From a virus (taxonomy: Duplodnaviria; Heunggongvirae; Uroviricota; Caudoviricetes), in IMG/VR virus record IMGVR_UViG_3300028559_000005: a DNA stretch of 64,000 nucleotides; one strand, given 5' to 3'. Position 1 is the first letter of the stretch, and every line of letters begins with the position of its first letter. A program made the position numbers and the translations under genes. Below the pieces are notes generated by a model. It did not search any database and was not told where the DNA came from. It saw only the letters and a list, made by a program, of their open reading frames with translations. This document shows, in pieces, positions 6,578-61,143 of the stretch.

Positions 6578-6615
6578 AAAAGAAAGCCCGCCGAAGCGGG
6601 CCTCTGTTATTTTTG
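6578..6615. terminator. bidirectional rho-independent terminator
   Basis: GC hairpin gcccgc-cgaa-gcgggc flanked by a T-run on the plus strand (ctctgttattttt) and a T-rich run on the minus strand (tttcttttg). It lies between tRNA-Thr and rpoZ. Confidence 0.55.
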
Positions 6616-6927
6616 GTTACAAGGTATAACTACCTCGTGGAGGTCACGCTGCTAGGCGTTCTTCTCCAAAGTATGCATCGTTTGCATTTAGGTTTTTTGT
6701 GTCTACGACCGGGTTACCCCAATCCTAACGGCTTCTACATTGCCGGACTGTCCAGTCAAATACTGCACCGACTGTCGAATCTAAGACCGGCCCATCATAA
6801 AAACACCGTATGCTCTTATGGTGGACCGGGCGGGGCACCGCCCCCCGCGTCCAGTCAATTGTTCTTTTTCCTTCATACAGTCTTAACTTACAGTATATAT
6901 TTATTTCTACATGCTGTCAAGTGAATT

Positions 6928-7002
6928 TGGTGCTGATAGCAGGATTTGAACCTACGACCTCTTTCATACCAAGAAAGCACACTACCTCTGTGTTATATCA
7001 GC
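6928..7002 (-). tRNA. tRNA-Thr (anticodon GGT)
   Basis: Acceptor GCTGATA/TATCAGC with discriminator A and encoded CCA. Anticodon arm CTTTC-TTGGTAT-GAAAG. T-arm GTAGG-TTCAAAT-CCTGC. Confidence 0.7.
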
Positions 7003-7901: not shown

Positions 7902-7979
7902 TGGAGCGACTGGCAGGACTCGAACCTGCATGAATCCTTTAGCTTTCTCTTGGTTCGAAGCCAAGCGGCATACAGTCGC
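7902..7979 (-). tRNA. tRNA-like gene, identity uncertain (possible anticodon TCG)
   Basis: Perfect acceptor GCGACTG/CAGTCGC, discriminator T, encoded CCA. T-arm GCAGG-TTCGAGT-CCTGC. The D-arm is abnormal or short. Candidate anticodon arm CTTGG-CTTCGAA-CCAAG. Confidence 0.45.
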
Positions 7980-12178: not shown

Positions 12179-12221
12179 TTGGTACGAGAGACGGGATTCG
12201 AACCCGTACGCTCGAAACAAA
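12179..12221 (-). pseudogene. tRNA 3'-half remnant (T-arm, acceptor 3' strand, CCA) without a 5' half
   Basis: RNA-sense ACGGG-TTCGAAT-CCCGT-CTCTCGT-A-CCA, immediately 3' of tRNA-Leu(TAA). No D or anticodon arm. Confidence 0.45.
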
Positions 12222-12394: not shown

Positions 12395-12472
12395 TGGAGC
12401 AACGGGAGGGATTTGAACCCCCGGTTTTCAGGATTTGCAATCCCGTGCATTGGACCTCTCTGCCACCGTTGC
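12395..12472 (-). tRNA. tRNA-Cys (anticodon GCA)
   Basis: Anticodon arm CGGGA-TTGCAAA-TCCTG. T-arm GGGGG-TTCAAAT-CCCTC. Encoded CCA. Overlaps the 3' end of the hldD ORF call. Confidence 0.65.
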
Positions 12473-14333: not shown

Positions 14334-14724
14334 AAAATATCACTTGATTAACATGTTCTTGTGCCACTACGCTCTTACCTTGCCAGTCACTGCCTTTGAC
14401 CATGATGTCTGGTTTATATTCTTTCATTATATCTATCAGTTGTTCTTTGCTATCAAAGAAGTAAACAGTGTTAACACATTTTAAACTTTCTAACATATAT
14501 CGTCTATCATCTTGATTATTAATAGGCCGATTTTCACCTTTAAGTTCTTTTACTCTTCGATCTGTATCAATTGCCACTAACAGATGATCGCCGAGACTTT
14601 TTGCGTGTTGTAACATCATTAGATGTCCACGATGCAATATATCAAATGTTCCGTTTACTATTACTTTGGTCATGTTATTTGGTACCTGGTGACGGGATCG
14701 AACCGCCCACACCCGGATTTTCAA
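14272..14724 (-). CDS. D-glycero-beta-D-manno-heptose-1-phosphate adenylyltransferase domain (HldE C-terminal / HldC-like cytidylyltransferase fold)
   Basis: NGTFDILHRGHLMMLQHAKSLGDHLLVAIDTD...GENRPIN matches the HldE domain II (GCFDILHAGH...SRP) pattern. Confidence 0.7.
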   Translation of the reverse strand: MKIRVWAVRSRHQVPNNMTKVIVNGTFDILHRGHLMMLQHAKSLGDHLLVAIDTDRRVKELKGENRPINNQDDRRYMLESLKCVNTVYFFDSKEQLIDIMKEYKPDIMVKGSDWQGKSVVAQEHVNQVIFYDRVGEYSTTKTIQDIANRR

Positions 14725-14755
14725 TCCGGTGCTCTACCTACTGAGCTATCTTGGC
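14680..14755 (-). tRNA. tRNA-Phe (anticodon GAA), acceptor stem poorly paired
   Basis: GCCAAGATAGCTCAGTAGGTAGAGC 5' half is E. coli Phe-like. Anticodon arm CCGGA-TTGAAAA-TCCGG. The 3' strand ACCAGGT-A-CCA mispairs at 3 of 7 positions, so it may be degenerate. Confidence 0.5.
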
Positions 14756-14761
14756 AATATT

Positions 14762-14835
14762 TGGTACCTCGTTGGAGAATCGAACTCCCGTATCCACCGT
14801 GTAAGGATGGCGTTCTACCATTAAACTACCGAGGC
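14762..14835 (-). tRNA. tRNA-Val (anticodon TAC)
   Basis: Anticodon arm CCATC-CTTACAC-GGTGG. T-loop TTCGATT. Encoded CCA. Confidence 0.55.
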
Positions 14836-15342
14836 CTTGTACTCTCTCAAATACGAATTTCTTTTCGTATTCTTTTTATATCTACTTCCTTGTCCGGCAT
14901 TGCCAAATGTTTCTGTTTGTGTATGACAATTAGGACACAATAATCTTAAATTACTCAATTGATTATTATCGCTGTTACCATCTATGTGATCTAATTGTAA
15001 TACAAGCGGCTTGCTATTCCAGGTATTTTCTTGCCCACATTCAACACAACTATCTCCGCATTTTTCTTTAAGATATCGCTTATAGTTTCCACCAAGTCCT
15101 TGTTCAATTTTAGGAATTGAGACAAACTCCCATTGATATTTTCCAGAACATTCAACTGAACAAAACTTATTTTCAGTGCTATTACTGTGCTCAAACTCTG
15201 CATTACAATACCCACACTCATACAGTCTTTGATTTTTTTTCCTACTCATTGAGTAGCGACTAGGTTTATCTTTGTGTGCTATTTGATGAGCATTTCTAGC
15301 ACGATGATTTTCAAATTCTTTCCCACAGTGGCATTTATACAT
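14821..15342 (-). CDS. HNH homing endonuclease
   Basis: Zn-finger-like CHCGKEF...CGYCNAEF plus HNH motif LQLDHIDGNSDNNQLSNLRLLCPNCH. Embedded in the tRNA array. Confidence 0.75.
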   Translation of the reverse strand: MYKCHCGKEFENHRARNAHQIAHKDKPSRYSMSRKKNQRLYECGYCNAEFEHSNSTENKFCSVECSGKYQWEFVSIPKIEQGLGGNYKRYLKEKCGDSCVECGQENTWNSKPLVLQLDHIDGNSDNNQLSNLRLLCPNCHTQTETFGNAGQGSRYKKNTKRNSYLREYKASVV

Positions 15343-15837
15343 AATATTTCCTTGCTCAACTATTTAGCATGATTGAACAAAAATACTCTCTACCCCTGAG
15401 CTAACCAGGCAGGCTATTCTGAAACACACTCATCACACACCGTATTATAAGCGATCAACCTTATAACCTTATAGGCATCAAAATGTGCTTTAGAATAGTG
15501 GAGGACTGAGAATACATCCTTACCGAGTAACACCTCAGACATTATAGTAAACCTTGCGAGTCTACCTTCTTCTGACTTCCACTAAATCCATATTGCTATG
15601 TAATCTAGTCTGTTACCAACATCGCCGTTTAAAGACAGGCATTAGTCTTGACATCGTATGCTATTCTACGCTTTCTATCCCGTTGACCTTTAGAGCCATT
15701 CACAGTCGCTAAACTGTTACGAAACTTCCTGCATAAACAGATTTCACCTTGCGAGTTACGTCTGACTTGATTACCTTGCGGCTCAAGTATTAGATGCTTT
15801 TCACATACGACCGAGTCAGTCTTTGCATTTTAATCGT

Positions 15838-16160
15838 TAGCGGGAGTTGAACCCGCAGTCGACTCCTTAACAGGGAGTTAGCTTACCATTAGCTTATAAC
15901 AACCTACTGCGATGTGCTGACTCAGTTGCTGCATACTCTTTTGGAATACACAATACAACACACCACGTTCCTTTTGTCTTGCGAACTACTCAGACGTTTT
16001 TTGCGACCAATGTCTGCATATTGCTACGCATCCATCAACCACTTAAACTGCATACAAGCCCTTGAGTGCAACCTCTCGGACACGTACACTACCCTTTCTC
16101 ATACCAATTAACTGGACTGGTTTTGTTGTGAGGTCAGCACCACCTGTTACTCTCTAATGA
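15838..16160 (-). ncRNA. candidate tmRNA-like / structured RNA in a 1.1-kb ORF-free gap (boundaries tentative)
   Basis: Minus-sense ...GACUGCGGGUUCAACUCCCGCUAACGAU carries a T-arm identical over 17 nt to E. coli ssrA (GCGGGUUCAACUCCCGC). A possible 5' partner GUCAUUA lies about 320 nt upstream. A possible tag ORF reads ...ALKGLYAV*. The region 15343-16440 has no ORF of 60 aa or more. Confidence 0.3.
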
Positions 16161-16505
16161 CTTGCGTTACCCTTGCAGGCGCTTGAGCCACTAATTCTTT
16201 CCACAACATCCAGCGTCATTGTTACAACCACCGGTCTTATCAGTGATCGGATCCTCACGGACCTGAATCAGGCTTGCTTAAACGAACTATCTCTAGCGGA
16301 GTTATGTAGGCATACCTCCTTTGGCTGTGTCACCACAGTTATTCTTCATAAACCAGCAAGCTAGCTTATAGGACGTTAAACCGCCCTTGAATCTTATTAT
16401 AACACTGACTGCTGAACTAGTCAACAATCAATGTTACCAAATTTTTATATCCACATACACTGTGCAGGAATCAAACCCGCCGACCAAGCCATAGGCCTAG
16501 CAACT

Positions 16506-16589
16506 TGGTGCCCCAGGTCGGACTCGAACCGACACGCCTTTCGGCACTGGCTTCTAAGACCAGCGTGGCTGCCATTACACCACCGGGGC
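16506..16589 (-). tRNA. tRNA-Leu (anticodon TAG), type II
   Basis: GCCCCGGTGGTGTAATGG... Anticodon loop CTTAGAA. Variable arm GTGCCGAAAGGCGTGT. T-arm CGG-TTCGAGT-CCG. Encoded CCA. Confidence 0.7.
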
Positions 16590-16933: not shown

Positions 16934-17019
16934 CCATATAGAAACACACTCTGCATTTGAAATGCCGACTCCTTTTGCCAAGGTTGTAAACATCGCATTG
17001 CCAATGTGTTTTTATATGG
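16934..17019. repeat. hairpin element copy 1 (terminal inverted repeat CCATATAGAAACACAC ... GTGTTTTTATATGG)
   Basis: A 14-16-bp terminal stem encloses about 55 nt. A second copy with the same termini but a different interior is 240 bp away. Confidence 0.6.
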
Positions 17020-17172: not shown

Positions 17173-17255
17173 CCATATAGAAACACACTAGTCGGAAACG
17201 ACTTAGAGACCTACTTGCCCACAGTCACGAAGGCTTCTAATATGTTTTTATATGG
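17173..17255. repeat. hairpin element copy 2 (same terminal inverted repeat)
   Basis: ccatatagaaacacac...tgtttttatatgg. Its end overlaps the ATG of plus-strand ORF 17252..17914. Confidence 0.6.
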
Positions 17256-33486: not shown

Positions 33487-33750
33487 TTATTCAACTCCGA
33501 AATGTTTTTCTAATCGTATGTACATATGTGTCGCAATGACCTCTTTGGAATGATATTTATAGAATTCGGCATCTTTATCCATTTCTCGTCCCAACAAAAT
33601 TAGGGGTCGGGCACATTCCCGAACAATCAACTCGGCGAACTTACCACGAACGATGCTGTGGTAGATGTCATTGTATCGATCGTTGGCAGGCACCTTGCTG
33701 TCAGCATAGGCAATGGCCTCTAGTTCAAGTTCTCTAATTTGTGCGTTCAT
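33487..33750 (-). CDS. small paralog family member P4
   Basis: MNAQIRELE...GKFAELIVRECAR...KHFGVE. Confidence 0.55.
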   Translation of the reverse strand: MNAQIRELELEAIAYADSKVPANDRYNDIYHSIVRGKFAELIVRECARPLILLGREMDKDAEFYKYHSKEVIATHMYIRLEKHFGVE

Positions 33751-33856
33751 TTTTGTTGCAATAAAAAAGCAGTTAAATCAGGGCCTTCAACTTTTACAAG
33801 TTGGTCGCCGGCTATGTTACAGAGTGCAGTCTTTGCGTCTTGAAAGAAATGCCGGT

Positions 33857-34084
33857 TCATTCTTCAACTCCGAAATGTTGGTTGATCTCGTCAATACATT
33901 GTGTGCCACCATTCAACCAAGTGTCTACACTTTCTGGAACAGGATCACTGATAACTTGTTCGCAACATCCAATACATTCCCGAACAATCAACTCGGCGAA
34001 CTTTTCCTTACTAAAGATTAACTCGCCATCATGCTCGATAAGACTCTGTGCGGCAAACCGTTCTAACATTGGTATCTTGTTCAT
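33857..34084 (-). CDS. small paralog family member P5
   Basis: ...EKFAELIVRECIGC...QHFGVEE. Confidence 0.5.
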   Translation of the reverse strand: MNKIPMLERFAAQSLIEHDGELIFSKEKFAELIVRECIGCCEQVISDPVPESVDTWLNGGTQCIDEINQHFGVEE

Positions 34085-57290: not shown

Positions 57291-58480
57291 TTTTGGGTCC
57301 TTTTAAATAATTTTCTCAATTGGTCTTCTGAAAAGTTTTGCTGTTCCAGAAATGCTTCTATAGTTCTTCGAACTTTTTTGATATTGTACATGCGTTTGGT
57401 AGTGGCATTTGAAATATCCACACCCAACATTTCAGCCAGTTTAATCAATTGGTCTAAGTCTAAACTATTATAGAGTTGTTTGATAGGAATGTCAACTACT
57501 TCTGGTGGAATTTCTTTTATCGTCACTGGGTCAGGTAGTACTGGCACAGATTTTCTATAAATCCCAGCCAAACATTGTCCACCTCGAATGCTAGTCAACT
57601 GCCCAGGCTTTTTTAATTCTACCCAGGTGCTTGCACTATTAATAATCTCTTTACGAACAATTTCATATCCTACTTCAACTGCATGTTCATATATTAATCT
57701 TGCTGGTGTGTAGCAGCAAAAATGATTTTCAGTCAATTCTACTCCACCTTGCCGATCACAATCATTGAAGTTGAAAAAGAACGTACCACCACCACGCAGT
57801 AATCTAAATACTTCCAACAGATATTTTTTTATAACTTCCAAGGGGCGGAAATTAAAATAGTCAAAGCTGTAAACAAATCCAAACTGCTGTTGCGGTAATG
57901 CTTCAAATATAGGTTGGTTATTGAATTCATCAATCACATAACATCGTAATCTACGTTGATATTCGGGAGGAAATTGACTAGTAACAGGAGCCATCAGGTC
58001 TTTATGAGTATCTATAAAATACATGGGATCCAGTGCTACTAAATCCTCCACCCAGGGACTGTGCGAAGGCCTTATTACTAATCCAGGATATTTCCAATCA
58101 GTGTAGGTTTGCAATCTACCACGCAACTGCAATTTCTTAGCAGGATCTATAGGTCGAATTCTTTGCAGAATGTATTCAACAGTTTCATGTTGCATAGACT
58201 GATACAGTTTGGTACTGTGGTCAAAATATACAGATTCATTATGTTTGATTAGGTCCTGAACATGTTGGCGTATGTTATGCAAAGTTTGATCATACTGCTG
58301 TAAGTACAGTTTGACTTGATCCTGAGTTGCGAGTAATCGATCTGTCAACTGTGGAAATTGTATCTGACTGTTTTGTATTACATAACTGATACCAGCCAAT
58401 TCTGCGTTGACACTCACAGCTGATTCTACACCAAGTGTATCTAAATGATTTAGGTATCCAACTAAGTCACTAAGTATCAT
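57287..58480 (-). CDS. hypothetical protein (397 aa)
   Basis: ORF only. Coupled to the DNA polymerase gene. Confidence 0.4.
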   Translation of the reverse strand: MILSDLVGYLNHLDTLGVESAVSVNAELAGISYVIQNSQIQFPQLTDRLLATQDQVKLYLQQYDQTLHNIRQHVQDLIKHNESVYFDHSTKLYQSMQHETVEYILQRIRPIDPAKKLQLRGRLQTYTDWKYPGLVIRPSHSPWVEDLVALDPMYFIDTHKDLMAPVTSQFPPEYQRRLRCYVIDEFNNQPIFEALPQQQFGFVYSFDYFNFRPLEVIKKYLLEVFRLLRGGGTFFFNFNDCDRQGGVELTENHFCCYTPARLIYEHAVEVGYEIVRKEIINSASTWVELKKPGQLTSIRGGQCLAGIYRKSVPVLPDPVTIKEIPPEVVDIPIKQLYNSLDLDQLIKLAEMLGVDISNATTKRMYNIKKVRRTIEAFLEQQNFSEDQLRKLFKRTQK

Positions 58481-61143
58481 TCAAATGAAAATAAGCTAGT
58501 AAATGTATTTGCTGTGTTGGTACTTGATTGCAAGTTCCACGACAACACACCCAAAAGATTGTCAATTTTTTGATCCACCACAGTGGCTTCCATGTTGGCA
58601 TCGTCAAACGGCAGTTCTTTAAACCATGTTGGCAAATGATGTTCGTCTGTGGGATATCCAATACTGGTCCACCCTAGCGCATTGCTTTTGAGCTTGCACA
58701 CAATGGTCTTCATACCATCCACAATTTGCATCGAGTAATTGTCCGAGTTCATGCGTCGCAATGTATTCCAGTTCAATGCAGCTCGCACATGCCCAGGCAT
58801 GTTGGACTTGCCGTTCTTCTCTTCTAAATTGCCATATTTGGTCAAGTTATTCACACGCTTGGGTGAGCCTTTTTCCCAACCTGGGCGTTCAATAAATTTG
58901 TATTTGAATTCTCTAATACATTCTACAATTTCTTCTCTCTGTGTTCCTGTTAGGACCTTATTTAGAAGATCGCTAAGGAACTCTTGAATAACCACTGGAG
59001 TATCACTGCGCTTCAAATCCAGGCCCATGGCCTTTACCTTGCCTGGTTTGCCATTCACATCCACACGTTTGTTTTCTTTGTCAATGTACAGCACAGCATA
59101 CCGCTTCTTGGTAATAAACAAGCCAGTACGTGCCACAATTTCTCGACCACCACGAATCACAGATCCCATATCTCGTGGACAATGAAATGCCTGTTCCATG
59201 AATCCAGGAAACGAATCATTTACTTGATCAGCTATGGAGTTATACAATGCAATACAAGTTTCGGCAGACCACTCCATTCTGCCATCTTCGACTTCAGCTT
59301 GAACCATGGGCCATGCTGAGAAGTAACAAGAGTCAGTGTCACCATAGATAATGCTTTTGCCACTGTGATCATATTCGCCAGTGATGCATTCATTCACATA
59401 TGCATCCATGTGTTTGGCAATACTGCGACCCACAAGGGTAGTTGATTGTCCAATACGTTTATCAAAAAATCTACAACCTGGATTCAAGATAGCACCATAC
59501 AAGCTGTTTAGATTAATCTTCTTGACCAATTGACGTTTATCCCAGTATTCAAACTGCACATCGTCTTTGCCTTCAAACTCTCGTGCTTTCTTCTGCATGT
59601 CTTTACGTTCGGCATACCAGCGTTTGAGCAAGCCTGGAATCACACCTTCTTTTTCATAGGTGAATATAGTGCCATTGGCACTGAGAATCCACGGTTGATT
59701 AGAATCAAACAGCATTTTCCAAATCTCAGCAGCTGAGTGAACAGTTTCCTCACCATCTTGCCAGTCTATTGTGATCTCTGTACCACGTTGCTGTTCCATC
59801 ACGGCTGTGTATTCCAAGCTGGCAAACAATCCTTCCCATGCAGCAGCAAAGCTATCTCCACCAGCTATTTTGTCTTGGATCAACCGATCAGTCATTGTGG
59901 GTCTGAGTTGACCAACAATGGTTTCTGGGCCCATGTTAAGGGCCCGAATAGCACTGGGATAGAGCGAGTTGATGTCGATGCTACCAATCCAGTCGTGGAT
60001 TCCTTTTTTGGGATAAGCAACATAGGCACCTGCGGCTTGCGTGTCTTCATCTGTGAATCTTTCTTTACGGTTAGGAACTACCATACCACGTTCGTGAGCT
60101 TCAATAATAATAGCTTGCTCAGTCACGGCCACTGCACCCATTGTGGTTTGCAACAGCACGGTATTTTCATGTGCTAGTGTATTGGCCAAGCTGAGAAATT
60201 TAAGTTTCTTATCCAGCTTGCCAATTAGCATTGTGTCTTGACGGTTGTAATCAATAAAGATTTTGAAGTTCTGGTTGTATAGTTGATCCAGTGTGCCTTC
60301 GAATGCAGTCTTGCGACCAATTTCTTCGTATTCGCCAATGGCGTCTAACGCATAGCTATGACGTTCTTCATAAGTGTATTTGCGGTACAATTGCATATAG
60401 TCCATATGCACTCGTCCTACCAAATCATAAGTTTGATTCTCTGCACCAAAGCGTTCAAACACACGTGGTTTGGGAAACTGGTTCCACAAACACATGCGTC
60501 TGGTATCATCTTTGCTGAGCACTCTGGTGATTCGATTCACTGTGTACGGAATGTCATAGCCTTCTGAATTCCATCCAGTGAGAATGTCTGCATCTTCAAT
60601 CAAGTCTAGGAATGTGTTCAGCATGTCTGCTTCTTTTTCAAACATAAAGCAGTTGTCAAATTCAGCAGCAATTTCTCTAGCTGTGTCCATGCTCATGTGG
60701 CGTGGCGGCACTGCCAGCGTCACAATCTGATCCAGCCAATCCATGTATACAGATATGGCTGTGATTGGATTAAACGGATCAGTCACCGGTGAGAAACCAC
60801 GATTTGGATCAAAGTCTACTTCGATGTCATAGAATGCTGTGTGCAGTTGAGGGCCGTCTTTGCCTTTGTAGTTGTCTTCTAAACAACGAAAGATAGGATT
60901 GATATCACTTTCGTAGAGTTTCTTACTGGAGTGCATACGCACTTCTTTTCGAAACTCTTTGTTGTTGCGTGAGGAAAATCTACTTACCGGTGTGTCGTAT
61001 ATGCTACGAAACTTGCCTTTAGGGTCGTCATAGTAAAGCACATAGTTGACCGGATACTCTTGGTATACCCGCTGACCATTTCGGCGTTCTACCACGTGAA
61101 TTCGATCGTGTGCTCGGTCATATAACGCATCAACATATGACAT
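58477..61143 (-). CDS. DNA polymerase, family B (T4 gp43-like)
   Basis: Exo motif FYDIEVDF. Motif A DINSLYPSAI. Motif C IIYGDTDSCYF. 888 aa. gp43-like N-terminus. Confidence 0.85.
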   Translation of the reverse strand: MSYVDALYDRAHDRIHVVERRNGQRVYQEYPVNYVLYYDDPKGKFRSIYDTPVSRFSSRNNKEFRKEVRMHSSKKLYESDINPIFRCLEDNYKGKDGPQLHTAFYDIEVDFDPNRGFSPVTDPFNPITAISVYMDWLDQIVTLAVPPRHMSMDTAREIAAEFDNCFMFEKEADMLNTFLDLIEDADILTGWNSEGYDIPYTVNRITRVLSKDDTRRMCLWNQFPKPRVFERFGAENQTYDLVGRVHMDYMQLYRKYTYEERHSYALDAIGEYEEIGRKTAFEGTLDQLYNQNFKIFIDYNRQDTMLIGKLDKKLKFLSLANTLAHENTVLLQTTMGAVAVTEQAIIIEAHERGMVVPNRKERFTDEDTQAAGAYVAYPKKGIHDWIGSIDINSLYPSAIRALNMGPETIVGQLRPTMTDRLIQDKIAGGDSFAAAWEGLFASLEYTAVMEQQRGTEITIDWQDGEETVHSAAEIWKMLFDSNQPWILSANGTIFTYEKEGVIPGLLKRWYAERKDMQKKAREFEGKDDVQFEYWDKRQLVKKINLNSLYGAILNPGCRFFDKRIGQSTTLVGRSIAKHMDAYVNECITGEYDHSGKSIIYGDTDSCYFSAWPMVQAEVEDGRMEWSAETCIALYNSIADQVNDSFPGFMEQAFHCPRDMGSVIRGGREIVARTGLFITKKRYAVLYIDKENKRVDVNGKPGKVKAMGLDLKRSDTPVVIQEFLSDLLNKVLTGTQREEIVECIREFKYKFIERPGWEKGSPKRVNNLTKYGNLEEKNGKSNMPGHVRAALNWNTLRRMNSDNYSMQIVDGMKTIVCKLKSNALGWTSIGYPTDEHHLPTWFKELPFDDANMEATVVDQKIDNLLGVLSWNLQSSTNTANTFTSLFSFE

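Follow-up and report, generated by a model that had tools for sequence, protein, structure and literature searches.

The 64,000-nt stretch of DNA analysed here (the window) belongs to the IMG/VR virus record IMGVR_UViG_3300028559_000005 (Duplodnaviria; Heunggongvirae; Uroviricota; Caudoviricetes). Inside an array of tRNA genes it carries a 1.1-kb gap (15343-16440) with hardly any open reading frames (ORFs), and this gap is very probably a copy of GOLLD, a giant structured phage RNA, with a tRNA-Asn embedded in its internal linker. GOLLD RNAs are encoded by phages and prophages near tRNA islands, and their expression rises during lysis (PMC12286853, PMC12990946). An earlier note on the same DNA had put forward a phage tmRNA as the candidate for this gap and had named another large structured non-coding RNA as a fallback; it is the fallback that proved right. 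The position of the gap within a tRNA array was confirmed by ARAGORN, which found 29 tRNAs on the same strand, the minus-strand array extending from 6.9 to 26 kb. As to the ORFs of 60 aa or more, said to be absent from both strands, there is indeed none that starts with ATG, but under translation table 11 the plus strand holds two with other start codons, 15914-16111 (65 aa, GTG) and 16173-16364 (63 aa, TTG).

The identification is based primarily on the search with covariance models (CMs). cmscan placed GOLLD (RF02032) at 15503-15966 of the minus strand with 200.8 bits against a gathering score of 150, and the match spans the whole model, positions 1-416 of 416. The E-value was 5.4e-56 in the search of a 10-kb piece (11-21 kb) and 3.4e-55 across the whole window; among the 4227 Rfam families compared with the 11-21 kb piece, GOLLD was the sole outstanding match other than tRNA. 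Weak matches to FuFi-1 (16400-16574, 22-23.5 bits vs. 59.6) and to SNORA47, Plastid-ycf2, CRISPR-DR60 and L31-Firmicutes, all far under the respective gathering scores, were treated as due to chance. The CM scan and the ARAGORN run, which the earlier note had proposed as checks, were decisive and gave GOLLD and the tRNA-Asn. With the family, first described from lake metagenomes and Lactobacillales (solved representatives are the env-38 14-mer, PDB 9MEE, and the Streptococcus agalactiae 12-mer, PDB 9L0R), the window RNA has in common the full-length CM match over the gathering score, the two-domain layout with a 5' domain of about 420 nt, the terminal GUA(A/U)UCUCA hairpin, the variable linker J13/15 and the setting in a phage tRNA array. 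All the defining features of GOLLD that can be checked in silico are present, while the defining features of tmRNA that were looked for are not.

Since the Rfam model does not extend beyond the conserved 3' half of GOLLD, the remaining part of the gap (15967-16440) was analysed by means of homologues from IMG/VR. A search with a 16-base core motif, common to the window and the Sinorhizobium phage Phosso, retrieved at least 118 loci, the relatives all being IMG/VR viral contigs, and more than 100 of these loci hold homologues of the whole 16397-15503 stretch with 70-99% identity (local blastn). The conservation begins at about 16397-16388 and stops at 15503. Among GenBank phages, megablast with 15300-16500 gave no match, and a distant blastn search retrieved only Phosso and one 77-nt match of the tRNA level.

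In the alignment of 45 distinct full-length copies (A1), RNAalifold predicts 228 base pairs for the whole RNA, with compensatory changes in 133 of them. The 5' columns, folded separately, yield 112 pairs in 23 helices; 98.8% of the alignment cells are paired in these helices vs. 35-43% when the partners are slid, 69 of the 112 pairs show changes on both sides, compared with 14-25 after sliding, the score for covariation amounts to 0.481 vs. 0.05-0.08, and none of 500 shuffles reaches any of the observed values. The stretch from 15967 to about 16388, some 422 nt long, is therefore a densely structured domain of the RNA. In the 3' domain, the long-range helix between columns 629-637 and 779-787 and the hairpins inside it show two-sided changes across the 45 homologues, and the CM alignment of this domain contains few non-canonical pairs. 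The 3'-terminal hairpin GGAUGUAUUCUCAGUCC (15519-15503) has a covarying stem in the same 45 sequences and a loop (L27), GUA(A/U)UCUCA, that is invariant save for its one A/U position. One helix was discarded: the pairing of columns 41-49 with 816-825, predicted from the full alignment, shows only one-sided changes and is an artefact; folding of the 5' columns alone places columns 41-49 in a local UUCG/CUUG hairpin that has compensatory changes.

The transcription start probably lies near 16388, which would make the RNA about 886 nt long (Table 1). The near-consensus promoter predicted immediately upstream by a consensus scan has 11 of 12 matches plus the TG, and in many relatives (L047, L091, L115, L026, L107, L055, L074, L021, L034, L054, L096) the motif TTGAC(A/T)-17-TA(C/T)AAT precedes the first conserved bases of GOLLD (AAGGG) by the same distance. 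In other relatives (L097, L067, L020, L025, L057, L004) an upstream tRNA stops about 15 nt short of the first base of GOLLD, which implies that in these copies the 5' end arises from co-transcription with the tRNA and nucleolytic release. Judging from these arrangements, the 5' end of GOLLD would be made in two alternative ways, from an own promoter, as in the window, or by processing at an upstream tRNA.

Table 1. Features of the GOLLD locus and its immediate surroundings; coordinates are positions of the window.
Feature	Position	Strand	Remarks
Complete GOLLD RNA gene	15503..16388	-	About 886 nt including the 72-nt tRNA; from RF02032, homologues and the limits of conservation
GOLLD 5' domain (family-variable cap domain, outside the Rfam model)	15967..16388	-	About 422 nt; from alignment and covariation
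GOLLD 3' domain (universally conserved part)	15503..15966	-	464 nt; RF02032; ends in the terminal hairpin GGAUGUAUUCUCAGUCC
Predicted sigma-70-type promoter of GOLLD	16396..16424	-	TTGACT, 17 nt, TGtTATAAT (TG extended -10)
tRNA-Asn(GUU) in GOLLD linker J13/15, no 3'-CCA	15832..15903	-	Rfam tRNA 62.4 bits, full model; ARAGORN 15831-15904
Long-stem hairpin of about 85 nt (copy of a repeat family)	15414..15498	-	Begins 4 nt after the GOLLD 3' end; from fold and relatives
tRNA 5' stump (first ~21-23 nt)	15390..15410	-	Aligned with L113:3522-3601, where an intact tRNA-Val(tac) lies
Upstream leader of the HNH endonuclease gene, outside the RNA gene	15343..15389	-	Stretch not present in L113
HNH endonuclease ORF	14821-15342	-	Pfam HNH PF01844, 27.4 bits vs. 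cut-off 21.4

GOLLD RNAs are known to form protein-free cages, the env-38 RNA as a 14-mer and that of S. agalactiae as 10-12-mers, in which the 5' domains make the caps, the 3' domains make the ring, and an unresolved linker points into the lumen (PMC12286853; PMC12990946). In the solved env-38 RNA the 5' domain comprises residues 1-420 and the 3' domain residues 421-833, and tRNAs are sometimes found in the linker of GOLLD (PMC12286853). The domain sizes in the window are 422 + 464 nt, compared with 420 + 413 nt in env-38. By homology to the env-38 and S. agalactiae structures, the window RNA would fold into a cap domain (5') and a ring domain (3') and could self-assemble, needing no protein, into a closed cage of dihedral symmetry with 10-14 copies, which kissing loops and A-minor contacts would hold together; the linker, and hence one tRNA per chain, would then face the lumen. 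Among the segments published as inter-chain contacts, both GCAAAGACUG of J13/15 and the loop CUCGCAAGG show no variation in the clade. In two hairpin loops every sequence has a self-complementary dinucleotide, which is GC in 35 of them and UA in the other 10, to which the window belongs. One of the loops of the 3' domain (columns 742-756, in the window about 15654-15668 of the minus strand) reads CGCAA in 35 sequences and CUAAA in 10, again including the window. Because the double change from GC to UA retains self-complementarity, it fits a symmetric loop-loop contact between two chains. The comparison with the published list of contacts is valid at the level of motifs, as the numbering of env-38 drifts by 4-17 nt (816/833 nt), and at this level the cage contacts appear to be kept in the clade.

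Several points weigh against this reading of the gap. The GC-to-UA change in the loops may be a single event inherited by the 10 sequences; the minus strand yielded no intrinsic terminator; and the profiles of the 5' and 3' halves of the clade gave no nhmmer match to env-38 (816/833 nt), although the 3' domains are certainly homologous, so that the lack of a match carries no information on the 5' domain. Besides, the cage of the window GOLLD is inferred, and so are its transcription start and its 3' end. The window RNA also departs from the solved representatives: its sequence is too distant from env-38 for nhmmer, its linker is filled almost exactly by the tRNA, with 0-4 spare nt, instead of forming a 42-nt disordered loop, and its clade possesses a conserved hairpin after the 3' end.

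GOLLD with a linker tRNA in phage tRNA arrays has been described already, and the window copy is an ordinary member of a known family. The identification is for the most part a matter of correct annotation, and any Rfam scan would flag this 1.1-kb gap of a jumbo phage as GOLLD. The contrast in the CCA ends of tRNAs and the hairpin repeat, both considered below, go, as side results, beyond the accounts of GOLLD cited here.

The embedded tRNA-Asn falls in a stretch of the GOLLD model (positions ~64-130) that is variable and unpaired. Its discriminator base is U, followed by AAAAUGC, whereas CCA follows 23 of the 25 tRNAs called by Rfam in the window. The same holds throughout the window and the related loci (at least 118): the 3'-CCA is encoded by none of 56 unique embedded tRNAs and by 1134 of 1152 free-standing ones. 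The linker tRNA is also called by ARAGORN in 36 of 47 relatives, and by Rfam in Phosso. The remaining 11 embedded elements are uncalled by ARAGORN, and several of them have in A1 shortened D loops and altered T loops, with the 7-nt anticodon loop kept; degeneration of the D and T loops affects about one embedded element in four. A free tRNA-Asn is also present in 19 of the 50 loci with an embedded tRNA-Asn. The anticodons of the 56 embedded tRNAs are Asn GTT (29), Lys TTT (13), Lys CTT (5) and Arg TCT (4), with Ile, Gln, Thr, His and ATT found once each, so that NUU accounts for 48 of 56. The identity of the linker tRNA differs even between close relatives (A1 columns 532-605; L026, L107, L020, L076, L014, L054 and others), the switch being sometimes a single anticodon substitution in a near-identical tRNA, as between CCTGTTAAG of L076 and CCTTTTAAG of L107.

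A comparable arrangement is known from Mycolicibacterium, where a tRNA-Phe lies in J13/15 of GOLLD and the idea of "inhibited storage" was proposed (PMC12990946), and from Mycobacterium, where expression of the pseudo-tRNA inside GOLLD was not detected (PMC6582537). The tRNA at the same linker position, the tRNA genes on both sides and the HNH endonuclease gene in the array are common to these systems and the window (PMC12990946, PMC6582537). However, the mycobacterial copies lie in horizontally acquired tRNA arrays and the window copy in an uncultivated jumbo phage, and instead of tRNA-Phe or a pseudo-tRNA the window has a tRNA-Asn(GUU) that scores as canonical, replaced by Lys, Arg or Ile in relatives.

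As for the fate of the embedded tRNA, the CCA contrast suggests that it matures differently from its neighbours or not at all, and we infer that it is no ordinary tRNA gene but a captive module. Captivity, or a different maturation, is favoured because CCA is missing, redundancy with free tRNAs is frequent, and the D and T loops decay while the anticodon loop is kept. A captive tRNA would be stored or occluded in the cage and freed only by a separate route, an RNase Z-type cut with CCA addition, or would never be freed. On the other hand, the window tRNA-Asn is a high-scoring canonical cloverleaf (62.4 bits), and it is the only tRNA-Asn of the window and completes the set of 20 amino acids, which argues for its release and use. 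Moreover, phage tRNAs without CCA can be matured by RNase BN/Z and the CCA-adding enzyme, as in T4. These points speak against captivity, and it is a serious, albeit the less favoured, possibility that GOLLD is correctly identified while the tRNA-Asn inside it is an ordinary working gene. In this case the tRNA would be excised by RNase P and an RNase Z-type enzyme, receive its CCA and decode AAY codons, and GOLLD would serve as its carrier or precursor, whose halves may stay joined through tertiary contacts. The cloverleaf is recognized by two tools with the fourth-highest tRNA score in 11-21 kb, and the relatives switch between Asn, Lys, Arg and Ile anticodons with the cloverleaf kept, as is expected for decoding. 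However, 98% of the neighbouring tRNAs and no embedded one encode CCA, and bacterial RNase P makes use of the RCCA end. The degenerate elements mentioned above likewise tell against decoding, and no complementarity between embedded and free-standing isoacceptors was found. Two published observations point the same way, namely that the embedded pseudo-tRNA of Mycobacterium went undetected (PMC6582537) and that the linker faces the interior of a closed cage (PMC12286853).

An extreme form of captivity can be proposed only tentatively and is on the whole unlikely: in this large phage clade of lake type, the linker tRNA would be no real tRNA gene but a permanently tethered, never-aminoacylated module, displayed inside the cage in 10-14 copies per particle, and the hairpin of about 85 nt downstream of GOLLD would be an undescribed processing or insulating element. 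This proposal is compatible with the data, since CCA is absent from all 56 embedded tRNAs, free isoacceptors are redundant with them, and the anticodon loops are kept despite the decay of the D and T loops. If it is true, a tethered tRNA would fit the role of a bait or sponge for anything that recognizes anticodon loops, such as host anticodon nucleases or enzymes modifying or processing tRNAs. Anyway, the contrast of 0/56 and 1134/1152 makes the question of whether the caged tRNA is ever released and charged sharply testable.

The hairpin downstream of GOLLD consists of a 7-bp stem, a mismatch and a 10-bp stem (-27.1 kcal/mol, z = -3.25). It is present in 73 of 80 distinct 3' flanks of GOLLD, starting 3-6 nt after it; the outer 7-bp stem covaries, and the A.C mismatch and the U.G pair are conserved. 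The inner stem AAACACAUU/AGUGUGUUU, with the conserved U.G pair, encloses a variable interior of 40-90 nt. The hairpin belongs to a repeat family, of which the window has three copies, all on the minus strand (15414-15498, 16934-17019 and 17173-17255), and the 119 loci (L001-L119) have 244, compared with 0.35 expected per shuffled window; 41% of the copies lie 0-9 nt upstream of a tRNA. No Rfam family matched the hairpin, and a search of the literature gave nothing specific on a hairpin repeat of tRNA arrays. A DNA palindrome of the MITE type is disfavoured, as among non-Watson-Crick pairs of the tRNA-sense strand G.T (195) prevails over A.C (24), an excess owed largely to the one conserved U.G pair. 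Probably, the hairpin marks a processing boundary between GOLLD and the next tRNA. Phage T4 encodes stable non-tRNA species, RNAs C and D (species 1 and 2) of ~120-140 nt, which are co-located and co-processed with the T4 tRNAs. Compared by description only, these are a conceptual analogue of the hairpin repeats upstream of tRNAs, while GOLLD is about six times larger.

The explanation of the gap as junk, with a single tRNA-Asn surviving among the degenerate leftovers of deleted tRNA genes or ORFs and no structure conserved, is very improbable. It does fit the last ~110 nt, where a tRNA stump (15390-15410) and the edge of an HNH cassette (15343-15389) lie, but over the remaining ~890 nt more than 100 phage contigs show conservation from one end to the other, the compensatory covariation is massive and the CM match significant, by which this explanation is already refuted for 15503-16388. 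The history of the ~110 nt can be read from a sibling contig (L113), collinear with the window and 93-99% identical to it: the collinearity is lost at 15390 and regained at 14714. In the window, as the comparison of 14683-15410 with L113:3524-3599 shows, a cassette of 676 bp interrupts a tRNA-Val(tac), carrying the HNH gene and a tRNA-Val(tac) of its own (14762-14835) and leaving a chimeric pseudo-tRNA (14683-14755) with a GAA anticodon and three acceptor-stem mismatches, found by Rfam only. The HNH mobile element apparently supplies a substitute for the tRNA gene that it breaks, and in the window phage the tRNA following GOLLD and its hairpin has been disrupted in this way.

Another known large RNA, such as a remnant of a group I or II intron, RNase P RNA or ROOL, would agree with the size of the gap and the lack of ORFs, and ROOL has the tRNA-array setting as well (PMC12286853), yet the likelihood of this is practically negligible: among the 4227 Rfam families, those of these kinds gave no match even at permissive thresholds (in the gap, models of RNase P, group I and II introns and ROOL gave nothing at E up to 10), and GOLLD explains the whole conserved stretch. 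The group I intron remnant that the earlier note listed among its alternatives is refuted by the cmscan results. ROOL deserves mention as a system of the same kind: it, too, is a large ornate RNA of phages or prophages, lies near tRNA islands and builds a cage of RNA alone, in which an internal linker is disordered (PMC12286853); its sequence and fold are unrelated, and it has no match in the window.

A phage tmRNA, one-piece or permuted, with its T-arm at 15832-15859, its 5' strand at about 16155-16161 and a tag ORF ending in ALKGLYAV, is likewise extremely improbable as the content of the gap, though much of what had suggested it is real. The minus strand does contain GACUGCGGGUUCAACUCCCGCUAACGAU at 15832-15859, the 3' end of E. 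coli ssrA was quoted correctly (5422 of the 5426 complete E. coli genomes have it, annotated as ssrA), and the identity of 17 nt between the two, GCGGGUUCAACUCCCGC, is genuine. This T-arm, however, belongs to the complete cloverleaf of tRNA-Asn(GUU), with D and anticodon arms and without CCA, and the identity reflects only the common T-loop consensus on a G+C stem; the T-loop core GGGTTCAANTCCC is generic and recurs in the tRNA-Cys at 12408-12420. The acceptor 5' strand, sought about 320 nt away, is in fact GUUGUUA at 15903-15897, at the normal distance. The GUCAUUA proposed in its place exists, as the reverse complement of plus 16155-16161 and not 16152-16158, and could pair 6/7 with UAACGAU; the overall size, too, is like that of a tmRNA. 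The short frame ending in ALKGLYAV (GCA CUC AAG GGC UUG UAU GCA GUU UAA) can also be read, at about 16033-16059 of the minus strand, but it is not a tmRNA tag: it lies within helix 20 of the covarying 5' domain (alignment columns 336-375), and several relatives lack its stop codon, having sense codons there (..GCAAUGUUAAUGG..). ARAGORN, run over the window, called no tmRNA in the gap, and the Rfam tmRNA models gave no match in 15300-16520 at E up to 10; these results already refute a tmRNA in the gap. All in all, the gap shares with tmRNA only a generic T-arm of the tRNA type, lacking the CM match, the CCA, a conserved tag ORF and the set of pseudoknots.

The matches to tmRNA families were confined to 6581-6934, in the search of the whole window, and to a 17-nt fragment of 13.6 bits at 12191-12207, in the scan of 11-21 kb. 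The former locus, on the minus strand and 9 kb from the gap, is the real tmRNA, a permuted two-piece one (tmRNA_permuted, 94.1 bits vs. a gathering score of 47; beta_tmRNA, 91.7 bits vs. 84), and its location there speaks once more against a tmRNA in the gap. It was missed by ARAGORN. Its acceptor piece ends in ..GGUCCACCA, and its tag frame, GCA AAC GAU GCA UAC UUU GGA GAA GAA CGC CUA GCA GCG UGA, encodes ANDAYFGEERLAA. The permuted form hints at an alpha- or beta-proteobacterial host.

As for the phage itself, the 888-aa DNA polymerase of the window (58477-61143, minus strand) has only 46-49% identity to its best matches among GenBank phages, which are Sinorhizobium phage Phosso (469 kb) and Agrobacterium phage Atu_ph07 (490 kb), and related IMG/VR contigs reach 250-364 kb. 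The distant polymerase and the size of these contigs indicate that the window comes from an uncultivated jumbo phage. Phosso (PV764938.1), a cultured phage, has a GOLLD of its own (186.6 bits, at about 33533-34001; L001:4041-4509), situated in a 1-kb stretch without any annotated feature, and the tRNA in its linker (Rfam 54.1 bits, anticodon loop CUUCUAA, no CCA) is uncalled by ARAGORN. GOLLD genes are left unannotated in GenBank phage records, such as that of Phosso, which, being cultured, is a tractable system for the genetics of GOLLD, while the more than 100 full-length homologues of the clade make a deep comparative data set on this RNA. One more element of the window array is a tRNA-like gene at 7905-7979 (minus strand), which scores 41.4 bits with Rfam, was missed by ARAGORN, encodes CCA and has an unusually long stretch between the acceptor stem and the anticodon arm.

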